From a virus (lineage: Duplodnaviria; Heunggongvirae; Uroviricota; Caudoviricetes): a stretch of 64,000 nt of DNA. Each line of letters opens with the position of its first letter. Positions within the stretch are counted from its first letter, which is position 1. The stretch lies in IMG/VR virus record IMGVR_UViG_3300048925_000677, positions 53,569-117,568 of that record; one strand, 5' to 3'. Shown here in pieces: positions 6,006 to 52,132 of the stretch. A program made the translations under genes and the position numbers. Under the pieces are notes generated by a model. That model was given only the letters and a program-made list of their open reading frames with translations. It was not told the origin of the DNA and did not search any database.

Positions 6006-6464
6006 ATGAACGATCAAACGCTAGTCGCTGATCTGGTAGACCGTGGCGAACCGCTGGCAGAGTCGCCGGTCGACTGCTACCTAGAGGTGGACCGCGACGA
6101 CCACAAGGCGATCATTGTGTGGCGCGAACCGCTGGCATTCCATATCGAGTGGAACGGCGCCCGGTGGTCGGAACATGCCGACAGTGACGGGTGGCTGGCC
6201 AGCAGCGCTGAACTTCAGTTCGCGAACCGTCTGACCGACTACCTACGTCGTGCGGGTGTCGATGATGCCGACGTCTACACAGAGGGATACAACGGTGAGG
6301 ACGAACCGACACTCACGTTCGAAGTGGTCACGCCGTACCGTGCCGGCGAAACCTTCAAGTCTTGGTTTGACCGTATCGGCTGGCCTGTCGTCGCGACACT
6401 GACCAACGTCACGGACCCGGGCACGTTCATGAGTCCGTACCTGTTCGACATGACATCGCTGTGA
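6006..6464 (+). CDS. hypothetical protein
   Basis: 152-aa ORF. A degenerate copy of the TTGACAACT motif lies at 5968-5976 upstream. Confidence 0.5.
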   Translation: MNDQTLVADLVDRGEPLAESPVDCYLEVDRDDHKAIIVWREPLAFHIEWNGARWSEHADSDGWLASSAELQFANRLTDYLRRAGVDDADVYTEGYNGEDEPTLTFEVVTPYRAGETFKSWFDRIGWPVVATLTNVTDPGTFMSPYLFDMTSL

Positions 6465-50225: not shown

Positions 50226-50440
50226 CAGAGCAACCGCCTTACGTCCTTGAAGTTGCAGGAGATGCACCACCGCTGCTGAACGGGGGTGCTCTTCTTGCCG
50301 TAGGCGTCGTCGAGGGTCGAGTCCTCCCAGGCGCCATACGCGTGCTGGTGCTTCGGGGCTCGTGATCGGCGACGGTACGCAGTCAGTATCCAACCGAGGG
50401 CCCAGCCGATTGCGAGCCCAATGACGGTCCCCGTGGCCAT
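50222..50440 (-). CDS. membrane protein
   Basis: 72 aa; N-terminal TM helix. Confidence 0.45.
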   Translation of the reverse strand: MATGTVIGLAIGWALGWILTAYRRRSRAPKHQHAYGAWEDSTLDDAYGKKSTPVQQRWCISCNFKDVRRLLW

Positions 50441-50772
50441 CAGATCTCCTCGGCCTCAAGGATTGTCGGGAACATCGACAGCGGGCCGACGCGGACACCG
50501 CCGGACTTGATCTTGTAGGTCTTGCCCGGCTGGATCGACCCGTACAAGTCGGCCGACTTGAATCCCGAGATGAAGTTGTCCTCGACGACGAACGTGCCAC
50601 AGTCGGTGTAGACCCGCATCTCGGAAACTCCGTCGGAGTTCGACGTCCGATCCTTGCCGCCAACTAAGCAGGTCTGGGTCTCCTGGTTGACATAGGTGCA
50701 CGCCACCCCGGAGAGGCCGACGCTCAACGCAAGGCCGATGGCGACCAGGACGTCTTTGACGGATCGCTTCAT
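50440..50772 (-). CDS. secreted lipoprotein
   Basis: Signal peptide plus lipobox LSGVAC. Confidence 0.55.
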   Translation of the reverse strand: MKRSVKDVLVAIGLALSVGLSGVACTYVNQETQTCLVGGKDRTSNSDGVSEMRVYTDCGTFVVEDNFISGFKSADLYGSIQPGKTYKIKSGGVRVGPLSMFPTILEAEEI

Positions 50773-50796
50773 GGGTAACCCCTACTCTTTGAAAGT

Positions 50797-50876
50797 TGGT
50801 GCCCCGCACAGGAGCACACGTGTTAGGACGCGAACGGACTGGCTACCGGCCACCGGGCTCTACCTGTGCGGGGATC
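50797..50876 (-). ncRNA. candidate structured RNA: 11-bp helix closing a ~50-nt loop, 3' tail CACCA
   Basis: Minus strand: CCCCGCACAGG-(51 nt)-CCTGTGCGGGG-CACCA. The continuous helix resembles a stacked acceptor/T minihelix with an encoded ..ACCA end. Confidence 0.25.
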
Positions 50877-50963
50877 AATCTCGCGCGGGGTGGTTAGTCC
50901 ACTTCGGCTGGTCGGGCTCACCCACCACGGGACTGTTGCCGCCTACTAACGCGAGAAAGTTTG

Positions 50964-50997
50964 TGCCCGATACTGGATAGCGTCGGTGCCGCGCATG
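50964..50997. repeat. 31-34-bp direct repeat copy 1 (TGCCCGATACT-n3-TAGCGTCGGTGCCGCGC)
   Basis: Matches 51272-51306 at 28/31 conserved positions. About 90 nt upstream (minus sense) of the CACCA hairpin element. Confidence 0.5.
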
Positions 50998-51122
50998 CCG
51001 GCCGCGGTGCACATGGGTTGACCCAACCCAAACGCGACCGGCTTCCGCTCCGTTTTCTTAACGATGAGGGAGGAATCACCGGCCCTGTTTATTTGTAGGC
51101 AGCTCGTTGGCGTTGAGCTTCC

Positions 51123-51191
51123 GTGGAGTGGCCAGACTCGAACTGGCGTCGCATCCGTCGATGCCGGGATAGCCGCTACCCGCACACTCCG
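51123..51191 (-). ncRNA. tRNA-like element C (~69 nt; C1xA72 mismatch; 4-nt loop where the anticodon loop should be)
   Basis: Acceptor CGGAGTG/CACTCCA+C, D-arm CGGG-TAGCGGCTAT-CCCG, hairpin GCATC-GACG-GATGC, T-arm GCCAG-TTCGAGT-CTGGC (+51131-51147). Confidence 0.35.
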
Positions 51192-51271
51192 ACCTCAAGG
51201 TCACGGGAGAGCCACTGTGCCATAGGGAAGTTGGCACAGGTGATCACCGCTTACCTAGGAAACCTTGAGGA

Positions 51272-51306
51272 TGCCCGATACTTTGTTAGCGTCGGTGCCG
51301 CGCGTG
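51272..51306. repeat. 31-34-bp direct repeat copy 2
   Basis: tgcccgatactttgttagcgtcggtgccgcgcgtg; lies ~80 nt upstream (minus sense) of tRNA-like element C. Confidence 0.5.
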
Positions 51307-51637
51307 ACGCATCTTTCCACCGTTACTCGGTTCCGTTGCGAAGCGTGCCCAGTGTTCCCCGTCCCTTACGGCGTAGCCCTGTGGCAGGCATTAGGGTCTT
51401 GCGATCCGAGTAGGGCCCGGATGTTGCCGGCGACCTTCGTTGCCAGCGCGGACTCCGCCGCGTGCTCATCGGCCGCGGCCAGCGCTCGCTGGGCCACCGA
51501 CTTCTGGAAGTTCGCCTGCGCGACCTGGTGTTCGGCGTGCTGCTCCAGCTCTGCGAGGGTGCCGTTCAGCCCCTCCGTGATGGAGGCGACCGTCTTCGGT
51601 GGCGCGATGACGGGTTGCGGGGTCTTCTTGAAGAGGC

Positions 51638-52132
51638 TCATATCATTCTCCTTGGTTGTGTCGAATCGGGTTCGACCGGATTGTCGAGAAGTGCCTGAAC
51701 GTCAGCCTCTCGACCGTGGTTGAGGTCCGAAATGGCCGCCCAAAGGCGCTCGCGATACGGAAGCAACTCGGGATCGAAAGCATTCCCACGCCGCTGGATT
51801 GACTGAAGTCTCAGCGCGAGTGCCGATTGATCCCCCTTGGCGATGAGCCAAGGCTGCACCGCTTCCAGGATCGGGACCATCGACCGACCAATTGCCCTGA
51901 CCCCATAGAGTGGACGGCCATTGCCCGGCCGCTTGCAGAAGTACACCCTCAGCCCGGTCAGGCGCGCGGCCTTATCAAGCAATGGCACGCAGGTGTTTCC
52001 GATAAACATTGAGACGTCGAACCGCACCCCTTGAGACTTGGTTAGGCGACTCGATGAAATCGAGCCCTCGCCATCGATTAGGGCTGCCAGCCATGCTGCG
52101 TCGACGTCTGACATTGTGATCTGATCTTGCAT
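51638..52132 (-). CDS. LAGLIDADG homing endonuclease (free-standing)
   Basis: 164 aa; WLAALIDGEGSI motif near the N-terminus. Confidence 0.7.
   Translation of the reverse strand: MQDQITMSDVDAAWLAALIDGEGSISSSRLTKSQGVRFDVSMFIGNTCVPLLDKAARLTGLRVYFCKRPGNGRPLYGVRAIGRSMVPILEAVQPWLIAKGDQSALALRLQSIQRRGNAFDPELLPYRERLWAAISDLNHGREADVQALLDNPVEPDSTQPRRMI

Follow-up and report, generated by a model that had tools for sequence, protein, structure and literature searches.

An anticodon-less tRNA-like element in a mosaic of structured RNA modules of a mycobacteriophage-like genome

The minus strand of the window (the whole stretch of 64,000 nucleotides analysed here) encodes a tRNA-shaped element at positions 51123-51191 in which the anticodon arm is reduced to a closed mini hairpin, and the cloverleaf is kept in three diverged relatives from metagenome assemblies (L024, L022, and L028). 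The element cannot decode, and it occupies a position equivalent to that of real tRNAs in related phages. We tentatively read it as a non-decoding tRNA mimic that may serve as a processing signal and/or persist as a stable small RNA, an explanation that we consider plausible but hold with reserve.

A gene-free island of RNA modules

The element is part of a gene-free island (approximately positions 50773-51397) in a mycobacteriophage-like genome, located between homologues of the genes for Whirlwind gp52 and gp56 and made up of structured RNA modules in a mosaic arrangement. Like the flanking genes, all of these modules are on the minus strand, and we infer that the island is transcribed, probably together with these genes; neither a promoter nor a terminator was predicted inside it. 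Indels of 1-2 nt between homologues break every reading frame in the island, which rules out a conserved reading frame, and small ORFs within it were rejected as coding sequences. The island had been predicted from the window sequence to be non-coding territory, and this is borne out by the RNA modules found there; the three features then noticed (the tRNA-like element, an 11-bp hairpin, and a repeated motif) are all present on the minus strand where the original prediction had placed them.

An island 100% identical to that of the window is present in L004 and L005, and these two loci added nothing to the comparison. A megablast search of the island against a phage collection and a search of a plasmid collection retrieved nothing relevant, and the same was true when viral contigs were scanned for the T-arm/acceptor sequence or the mini hairpin, when they were searched for related loci with the protein of a 91-aa ORF bordering the island as query, and when genome contigs were scanned with two leader patterns. 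The sole match of a single metagenome scan, L008, apparently arose by chance. Within the window, neither ARAGORN with default settings nor Rfam (gathering score as well as E ≤ 1 or 10) called anything relevant, and the 701-aa neighbour protein had no Pfam or PDB matches.

Structure and conservation of the tRNA-like element

On the minus strand, positions 51123-51191 read CGGAGUG-UG-CGGG-UAGCGGCUAU-CCCG-GCAUC-GACG-GAUGC-GAC-GCCAG-UUCGAGU-CUGGC-CACUCCA-C, and the cloverleaf is the minimum-energy fold of this sequence. The seven acceptor positions form 6 bp plus a C1xA72 mismatch, the D arm has a 4-bp stem and a loop containing GG, the variable region comprises 3 nt, and the T arm is canonical (GCCAG-UUCGAGU-CUGGC), with the acceptor stem and T arm adding up to 12 bp and the T loop intact. 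The acceptor stem, the GG-bearing D arm, and the T arm (UUCRANY, G53-C61) expected of a decoding tRNA are thus present, apart from the mismatch at 1:72 in the window copy. The 7-nt anticodon loop is absent, and its place is taken in all four homologues by the same 14-nt arm consisting of a 5-bp stem and the tetraloop GACG. ARAGORN with default settings and Rfam made no call for the element; ARAGORN at a relaxed threshold reported a tRNA, with the loop forced. The fold energy of the element alone is no better than that of shuffled sequences (z = -0.09), and it is therefore the comparison with relatives, not the single sequence, that lifts the element beyond chance. The tRNA shape with a 4-nt loop at the anticodon position, as recognised in the original prediction, is confirmed by the three relatives that keep the cloverleaf. 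Other anticodon-less tRNA-like elements with tetraloop-capped mini stems were observed at positions 14866-14960 of the window and in phage Omega, where an ORF (gp190) is annotated over one of them.

Only four variants of the element are known, in the window, L024, L022, and L028, with pairwise identities of 79%-97%. As three of them are 93%-97% identical to each other, nearly all covariation stems from a single sequence, L028. Pair counts were taken on an alignment fitted to the covariance model (MAFFT set L028 out of register); in these four sequences, 98.2% of the cells are paired and five pairs have changed on both sides, a result reached by none of 500 shuffles. Acceptor pairs 4:69 and 5:68 are exchanged in L028 by compensatory double changes, T-stem pair 49:65 is G-C or G.U, and pair 1:72 takes three forms, CxA (window and L024), U-A (L022), and G-C (L028). 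A model built without the L028 sequence (R1) retrieves it with 74.7 bits (E = 1e-11), and the Rfam tRNA model gives this homologue 27.9 bits against a gathering score of 29. The 3' acceptor strand of the window, L024, and L022 versions is one base shorter than that of L028, so that the discriminator position is ambiguous. Both the tRNA-like element and the repeated motif are conserved in relatives, as opposed to the case, considered in the original prediction, that neither repeat nor hairpins would recur in any of them.

The variation at 1:72 bears on the suggestion that C1xA72 is a feature resembling initiator tRNAs. This mismatch is lineage-specific, and further marks of a bacterial initiator tRNA are missing as well: the element has G11-C24 instead of A11-U24, its mini stem (GCAUC/GAUGC) lacks the run of three G-C pairs, and it has no anticodon, where CAU would be required. 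The covariation also weighs against an attP-type integration site, or its remnant, with a piece of a tRNA gene of the host. Phage att cores are often copies of the 3' portion of such genes, but here both acceptor strands are present and covary between lineages, indicating selection at the RNA level. In addition, there is no integrase-like gene among the seven neighbouring genes scanned, and no identical T-arm/acceptor sequence turned up in the viral contigs scanned; we regard this origin as extremely improbable.

A tRNA pseudogene in decay, which has lost 3 nt of its anticodon loop, is drifting, and is accompanied by hairpins that are functionless leftovers of a tRNA or ncRNA array, has more in its favour, although we regard it as somewhat unlikely. 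Relatives have real tRNAs at the same site, and several versions of the element show blemishes: besides the terminal CxA in the window copy, the D stem of L028 is bulged, and the D loop of L022 has GA in place of GG, one G fewer, which would weaken the elbow. L021 lacks the element entirely. Moreover, expression was reported to be undetectable for a "pseudo tRNA" located within mycobacterial GOLLD RNA or beside it (PMC6582537). Against decay, the 14-nt mini arm is identical in four lineages while the acceptor stems differ by compensatory double changes, and all stems stay paired (98% of the cells), although drift at 21% divergence would be expected to unpair positions.

The constancy of the mini hairpin could also mean that the element acts as a decoy or sponge and captures some factor responsive to the tRNA shape, such as a host defence toxin targeting the acceptor ends or elbows of tRNAs or a phage or host RNA-binding protein, with the mini hairpin as the point of contact. 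A block of 19 positions, from CCCG through the mini hairpin, is unchanged in all four versions despite 21% overall divergence, for which a post hoc calculation gives a chance of about 1% under uniform divergence, and the similar tetraloop-capped elements elsewhere in the window and in Omega suggest a recurring design. The genomic context includes no defence or anti-defence genes, however, and the candidate partner is a postulated one; we consider a decoy quite unlikely.

Modules around the element

Upstream of the tRNA-like element, leader element A (51305-51397) is a structured RNA of approximately 95 nt, composed of CCUAA-UGCCUGCCACAG...CUGGGCACGCUU, a short capped hairpin, and GAAAG...CGUC. 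RNAalifold predicted 26 pairs for it, with compensatory changes in eight of them. Leader A is 78%-84% identical to unannotated DNA located 5' of tRNA-Asn or tRNA-Tyr in Cluster M/L phages, with matches in Bongo (L006, 6245-6340; Cluster M, upstream of tRNA-Asn) and Krypton555 (L007, 2501-2590; Cluster L, upstream of tRNA-Tyr), and is also found in L021. The 91-aa ORF extends into it with its last 11 codons, a read-through tail that is absent from all homologues, which stop at about residue 80 in the protein alignment. A hammerhead or other self-cleaving ribozyme was considered for leader A and rejected, as the core does not match by eye (CAGCGGA, not CUGAUGA) and Rfam finds nothing.

Leader A is followed by the first copy of hairpin B (51273-51298; stem GC-CCGA/UCGG-GC, loop region CGCUAACAAAGUA); the second copy (50965-50989) has the same stem and the loop region CGCUAUCCAGUA, and in L024 the loop variant of the first copy is found at the position of the second. 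These hairpins correspond to the motif originally described at 51272-51306 and 50964-50997. The motif indeed has just these two copies in the 64 kb (blastn self-match of 38 nt with 87% identity, E = 6e-6), at distances of about 80 and 90 nt from the elements downstream, in agreement with the prediction. The 3-nt spacer ascribed to it is found in the copy at 50964, whereas 4 nt separate the 11-mer from the 17-mer in the copy at 51272. Homologues of hairpin B in six lineages (Bongo, Nanosmite, prophi86-1, Krypton555, L021, and Omega) differ in their stems and keep the loop (A/G)GACG(C/U)(U/C)AA. The idea that the motif is a shared promoter found no support: it corresponds to an RNA hairpin whose loop (GACGYUAA) is conserved and whose stems vary among lineages, and a search for sigma-70-type -35/-10 hexamers with 16-18 nt spacing on both strands of 50300-51800 revealed no promoter-like site. 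The motif may instead signal RNA processing or binding. Nor is the motif consistently paired with the two elements that it precedes in the window, as L024 keeps the tRNA-like element without a motif copy upstream.

Between hairpin B and the tRNA-like element, the inverted repeat and fold indicate a long imperfect hairpin C (CCUCAAGGUU...GACCUUGAGG, 51193-51270), which ends 1 nt before the element. Hairpin C is specific to the window; L024, L022, and L028 carry other hairpins there, and a long hairpin likewise lies just before tRNA-Tyr in Krypton555. On the other side, the trailer hairpin E1 (GGAAGCUC-AACGCCAAC-GAGCUGCC, 51098-51122) begins directly after the element and differs from its L028 counterpart by two compensatory pairs. 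A near-identical hairpin follows a genuine tRNA-Gly in the Cluster J phages Omega, KashFlow, Courthouse, and DmpstrDiver. Since leader A and hairpin B precede genuine tRNA-Asn or tRNA-Tyr genes and E1 follows a genuine tRNA-Gly, the tRNA-like element occupies a tRNA slot. E1 is followed in the window, L024, L022, and L028 by hairpin E2 (GGCCGG...CCUCC...GGAG...CCGGUC, 51036-51084), which has an A-rich apical loop; the folds compared resemble one another, with partial conservation of the outer stem.

Module F (CUUUCUCGCG...GUGGUGGGUGAGCCCGACCAGCCGAAGUGGACUAACCACCCCGCGCGAGA, 50879-50959) is approximately 90% conserved in L024, L021, and L028 and contains one compensatory pair (GUGGU/ACCAC vs. 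GUAGU/ACUAC). In L021 and L028, it directly adjoins the leader of the next gene (junction ...GCGCGAGA|ACACCUUUCACAG...), whereas in the window the two are separated by element G (50802-50873), a perfect inverted repeat with arms at 50802-50812 and 50863-50873 that forms an 11-bp helix enclosing 50 nt (fold z-score = -2.1). Element G lies in an inserted segment of about 77 nt (50802-50878) that the window shares with L024 alone; its interior has two substitutions, one of which keeps a predicted pair and one of which breaks one. The window contains no further copies, and a repeated mobile element was rejected on this ground. On the minus strand, element G is followed by CACCA (50801-50797), which was originally likened to the encoded CCA end of an acceptor/T minihelix. 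This CACCA belongs to the leader and ribosome-binding region (50773-50801) of a gene for a 110-aa secreted protein (CACCAACUUUCAAAGAGUAGGGGUUACCC-AUG), for which homologous leaders are found in L021 and L028 (ACACCUUUCACAGAAUGGAUUCGCUAUG) and in L022 (AACACUUCAACAGAAUGGAU), none of them with a preceding hairpin. Because L021 and L028 have this leader and no hairpin, CACC(A) belongs to the following gene and is not a CCA end, and the hairpin represents inserted sequence and not an acceptor/T minihelix. An initiator-like tRNA relative and a CCA-ending minihelix, each under a shared 31-bp promoter, would account for features that exist in the window sequence taken alone, but the unconserved C1xA72, the gene-leader origin of CACCA, the stems of the motif hairpin that covary between lineages, and the L024 element lacking an upstream motif copy together make this combination very improbable.

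Proposed role and comparison with known systems

In the non-decoding mimic that we tentatively favour, a tRNA-shaped RNA without an anticodon loop and the trailer hairpins E1 and E2 would form the core cassette. The element retains an acceptor stem that would stack on the T stem, and T and D loops of canonical type that would form the elbow. These parts may be read independently of the anticodon by RNase P, RNase Z or 3' trimming nucleases, the CCA-adding enzyme, and T-loop modification enzymes. Excised from a long transcript, the element could thus act as punctuation and as a maturation signal, and excision would set the ends of its neighbours: leader A and hairpin B on the upstream side, and on the downstream side the E hairpins and module F or, in a relative, GOLLD. 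Once released, it might persist as a stable tRNA mimic of about 70 nt. Stable hairpins lying 1-12 nt from the 5' end and directly at the 3' end are unusual for RNase P and RNase Z substrates. Pure punctuation also does not explain the unchanging mini hairpin with its GACG loop, which suggests a sequence-specific partner.

Both the tRNA arrays of phages and the giant RNAs GOLLD and ROOL are abundant. This locus ties together a non-decoding tRNA mimic, a new leader motif of Cluster L/M, a trailer hairpin of tRNA-Gly in Cluster J, and GOLLD in a close relative, which suggests that these phages employ the shape of a tRNA repeatedly, as a modular signal by which non-coding RNAs are built or matured. 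Annotation pipelines miss such elements, with an ORF placed over one in at least the case of Omega gp190. More broadly, mycobacteriophages of several clusters might encode an unannotated class of functional anticodon-less tRNA mimics with a tetraloop-capped mini stem in place of the anticodon arm, acting as decoys for host tRNA-targeting defences or as covalent handles or cargo of GOLLD-type assemblies, with the GACG hairpin as the contact; we regard this extension as unlikely. The locus offers small, concrete RNAs for assays in a tractable M. smegmatis phage system.

Among known systems, the Y RNAs are of interest for their synteny. The interval between the gp52 and gp56 homologues that holds the island is occupied in Cluster L by a Ro60-like gene and a YrlA-type RNA (38 bits with the Rfam YrlA model at the Whirlwind locus), and L030 and L031 have Ro-like DUF2828/DUF7788 genes. 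[quoted passage not shown] Like these non-decoding mimics, the element has conserved D and T arms, and one could imagine a phage Y RNA in which it forms the effector domain and draws in the Ro60 (Rsr)/PNPase machinery of the host. In contrast to the element, with its normal tRNA topology (D arm, closed stem, T arm), YrlA (RF02553) is circularly permuted (T arm, closed acceptor-like stem, D arm), and its anticodon-like stem opens into the Ro60-binding helix, with the Ro60 gene adjacent. The acceptor stem of the element is not flanked by a long 5'/3' stem bearing a Ro-binding bulge, and the YrlA model found no match in the island at E ≤ 10. No Ro60 homologue was detected in the window by tblastn with the Whirlwind Ro-like protein, nor is the 701-aa neighbour a relative of the Ro-like proteins (hhalign probability 0.05%). 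A Ro60/Y RNA module was thus rejected for this locus, and a Y RNA-like role of the element itself appears distinctly improbable.

A parallel in position is given by GOLLD RNA, as tRNAs and "pseudo-tRNA" adjoin it or sit within it in phages and mycobacterial tRNA arrays (PMC12286853, PMC6582537). A tRNA-Asn in Cluster M occupies the same place as the tRNA-like element, after the same leader element, and in Bongo it lies upstream of GOLLD (216 bits); in L022, a complete GOLLD RNA (198.9 bits) is located approximately 195 nt downstream of the tRNA-like element. HNH endonuclease genes adjoin both settings. For GOLLD itself (RF02032, with its pseudoknotted and universally conserved 3' domain), neither the gathering score nor cutoffs of E ≤ 1 or 10 gave a match in the window, and a hidden or diverged copy was rejected. 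With tmRNA, which is encoded in the tRNA arrays of Cluster M phages, the element shares an acceptor stem and T arm without an anticodon. It differs by having G3-C70 instead of G3.U70, no tag frame or pseudoknots, and a D stem with a closed mini anticodon arm, and no tmRNA was found by ARAGORN and Rfam.

Cloverleafs with a reduced or non-functional anticodon arm are also formed by mascRNA at the MALAT1 3' end (RF01684) and by the TMER vtRNAs of murine gammaherpesvirus 68. These RNAs do not decode; they are contained in a longer non-coding transcript, beside stem-loops, and their recognition by RNase P, RNase Z, and the CCA-adding enzyme fixes where the adjacent RNAs begin and end. Being of eukaryotic or eukaryotic-viral origin, they lack sequence homology to the tRNA-like element, and mascRNA has no Rfam match in the island. 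Still, the element is likewise a cloverleaf without a working anticodon arm next to stem-loops, and with its 12-bp acceptor and T arm and its T loop, the structural prerequisites for a role of the mascRNA/vtRNA type appear to be present.

Setting of the island and fold of the tRNA-like element

The window has a G+C content of ~62%. PHROG phage families and proteins from Mycobacterium and Gordonia phages provide the matches to its genes. A DNA-level search among phage records returned none that was close, the best being WXIN, which aligned to 9% of a 24-kb query at 77% identity. As every gene around the non-coding island is on the minus strand, the island is read on that strand. In transcription order, the genes for a 701-aa protein with no function assigned (52206-54311), a 164-aa homing-endonuclease-like protein (51638-52132), and a 91-aa protein (51366-51641) precede the island gap, which is followed by those for a 110-aa secreted protein (50440-50772), a 72-aa protein, and a 258-aa DUF7275 protein. 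All homologues of the 91-aa protein end at about residue 80, and the copy in the window has 11 additional codons (SQDPNACHRATP, 51366-51401) that run into a leader RNA element; a gene caller would thus over-extend this gene.

We found all features listed for the tRNA-like element in the original prediction. Positions 51123-51191 (minus strand) adopt a cloverleaf fold in which a 5-bp stem capped by the tetraloop GACG occupies the anticodon-arm position. Lacking an anticodon arm, the element cannot decode, ruling out a decoding tRNA. The single-sequence fold is statistically unremarkable (z = -0.09), and neither ARAGORN nor Rfam called the element in the window, so the decision needed comparison with relatives.

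Relatives and conserved structure

Exact look-ups yielded two contigs that are identical to the window over the island and thus uninformative. Diverged contigs, described here in the orientation of the window's minus strand, were reached in public assemblies through homologues of two flanking proteins. Contig L024 retains the tRNA-like element, differing by two substitutions in loops; its downstream part is 96% identical to the window, and its upstream part contains wholly different hairpins. In the L022 version, position 1 is U, the T stem includes a G.U pair, and the D loop carries one change; two conserved hairpins and a complete GOLLD RNA follow. In L028, the most diverged relative (79% identity), the acceptor stem is GGGGAUG/CAUCCCC compared to CGGAGUG/CACUCCA in the window, with compensatory swaps in pairs 4:69 and 5:68, while the block CCCGGCAUCGACGGAUGCG is identical in both. 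The Rfam tRNA model scores the L028 version at 27.9 bits, just under the gathering score of 29. Contig L021 lacks both the tRNA-like element and the 11-bp hairpin near the island's end, with other modules of the island present. The C1xA72 mismatch, previously read as initiator-like, is not conserved, position 1 being U in L022 and pair 1:72 being G-C in L028; the remaining initiator marks are also missing, which rules out an initiator tRNA.

A covariance model of the tRNA-like element and the first trailer hairpin, built from the window, L024, and L022, recovered L028, which had been left out of the building, with 74.7 bits (E = 1e-11). In the alignment of all four sequences, which was fitted to the model, 98.2% of the cells are paired and five pairs are altered on both sides, values matched by none of 500 shuffles, in a test comprising only four sequences, three of them close, with L028 supplying most of the covariation. 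Registers shifted by 1-3 columns gave at most one pair changed on both sides. The rival reading of the element as a drifting pseudogene was weighed on these data.

Beyond the tRNA-like cassettes, the GOLLD RNA of L022, a close relative, spans 1205-1905 (Logan SRR31343364), its 3' part scoring 198.9 bits with Rfam. It is located ~195 nt 3' of the element, at the position held by modules B, F, and G in the window and L024. In L028, the downstream region (490-880) consists of ~390 nt of G+C-rich, structured-looking sequence with no Rfam match, partly homologous to unannotated DNA that precedes tRNA-Gly in Cluster J phages (504-690 of L038, from Omega).

Modular make-up of the island

A structured leader element of ~95 nt (51305-51397) follows directly where the 91-aa protein gene truly ends, with copies in Bongo (Cluster M, 6245-6340), Krypton555 (Cluster L, 2501-2590), and L021 (2893-2990). 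It precedes tRNA-Asn in Cluster M phages and tRNA-Tyr in Krypton555, and in some Cluster L phages it occupies a gap between genes that contains no tRNA. Compensatory changes affect 8 of its 26 predicted pairs, and Rfam contains no family for it. Conservation of this unannotated RNA motif extends over Cluster L and M mycobacteriophages and the window's lineage, and most copies lie immediately 5' of tRNA genes. Trailer hairpin E1 begins immediately 3' of the tRNA-like element, covaries in L028, and is nearly identical to the hairpin after a genuine tRNA-Gly in Cluster J phages. Cluster M phages have a full GOLLD RNA (216 bits) after tRNA-Asn, and in the equivalent interval of Cluster L phages, flanked by homologues of the 91-aa and secreted proteins, are a Ro60-like gene and a YrlA-type RNA. 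Together, the shared leader, the E1 trailer, and the Cluster L synteny show that this interval is a hot spot for the exchange of non-coding RNA cassettes, in which the tRNA-like element fills the slot held by real tRNAs in related phages. An origin of the element as an attP remnant was weighed for the same locus.

Hairpin E2 (51036-51084) has a conserved CCUCC, matching the anti-Shine-Dalgarno core exactly, paired with GGAG and kept in all four homologues. In SirSheldon (Cluster M, L003 1658-2533), the GOLLD model match is limited to positions 1-62 and is followed by an HNH endonuclease gene; the linker appears to be interrupted by this homing endonuclease gene, and the GOLLD RNA of Bongo is intact. 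Both phages (Bongo, 6009-6045) have a T-arm-like hairpin, GGUCUGGGUUCGAAUCCCAG, directly after the tmRNA 3' end, with weak Rfam matches to mascRNA and permuted tmRNA.

The promoter-plus-minihelix idea of the original prediction was weighed on two further modules. The composite 31-bp motif indeed occurs exactly twice in 64 kb (50964-50997 and 51272-51306),; one copy has the proposed 3-nt spacer, and the second has a 4-nt spacer. The motif folds as a hairpin whose homologues in Bongo, Nanosmite, prophi86-1, Krypton555, L021, and Omega retain the loop (A/G)GACG(C/U)(U/C)AA on stems of unrelated sequence. No promoter-like hexamers were found, arguing against a promoter. RNAalifold also suggests possible pairing of the loop GACG with a conserved CGUC terminating the upstream leader; L021 shows one compensatory change in this pairing. 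The perfect 11-bp inverted repeat around 50 nt, followed by CACCA, is also present (50802-50873). Relatives without this hairpin read ...GCGCGAGA-ACACCUUUCACAG...AUG, and the window reads ...GCGCGAGA-UUGAU-hairpin-CACCAACUUUCAAAG...AUG; as the leader is found without the hairpin, CACC(A) is part of the next gene's leader and not a minihelix end. Judging by these sequences, the hairpin is a ~77-nt insertion common to the window and L024 only; of two interior substitutions, one preserves and one disrupts a predicted pair.

Proposed function and comparison with known systems

The tRNA-like element retains the elbow-forming loops and the stacking of its acceptor stem on its T stem. These are the features that RNase P, RNase Z, the CCA-adding enzyme, and T-loop modification enzymes recognise. 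[quoted passage not shown] The best-supported reading, although a tentative one, is that the element may serve as a tRNA-shaped maturation signal within a multi-module non-coding transcript, possibly freeing a stable tRNA mimic. The wholly invariant mini hairpin hints at an extra sequence-specific partner, as pure punctuation leaves this invariance unexplained; action as a decoy for a tRNA-recognising factor was weighed alongside.

Further elements were observed elsewhere. A second non-coding island (14750-14960, minus strand) contains two more tRNA-like elements uncalled by ARAGORN and Rfam: one (~14868-14930, minus strand) with acceptor CCCGUGC/GCACGGG, the tetraloop-capped mini stem GGGCC-GAAA-GGCCC, and T arm GCGGG-UUCGACU-CCUGC, and one (~14756-14864, minus strand) with acceptor GCGGGGC/GCCCCGC, a T arm, and a ~70-nt insert (fold z = -2.9). 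In Omega, an anticodon-less tRNA-like element (L038 362-432; GCGCACG...GGGCUGUC-GAGA-GACGGCCC-GGGGGUUCGAUUCCUC-ACGCGCGC) lies within the annotated CDS gp190, in a ~900-nt, largely unannotated region around tRNA-Gly, and is conserved in three Cluster J phages (L038, L039, L040). A perfect 16-bp hairpin with a 5-nt loop (57470-57506) weakly matches Rfam tpke11 on both strands (28 bits, E = 0.05).

Among known classes, GOLLD is ruled out by the absence of a match in the window, and YrlA by the different topology of the tRNA-like element and the absence of a Ro60 gene; a Y-RNA-like Ro60 tether was likewise weighed. The tmRNA class was rejected on its membership tests. We class the element, which lies in a phage RNA locus, as a non-decoding tRNA mimic; its significance lies mainly in the conserved way in which it accompanies tRNA and GOLLD cassettes, with similar unannotated elements also present elsewhere. 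By its proposed mode of working, its closest analogues are mascRNA, the MHV68 vtRNAs, and bacterial Y RNAs.
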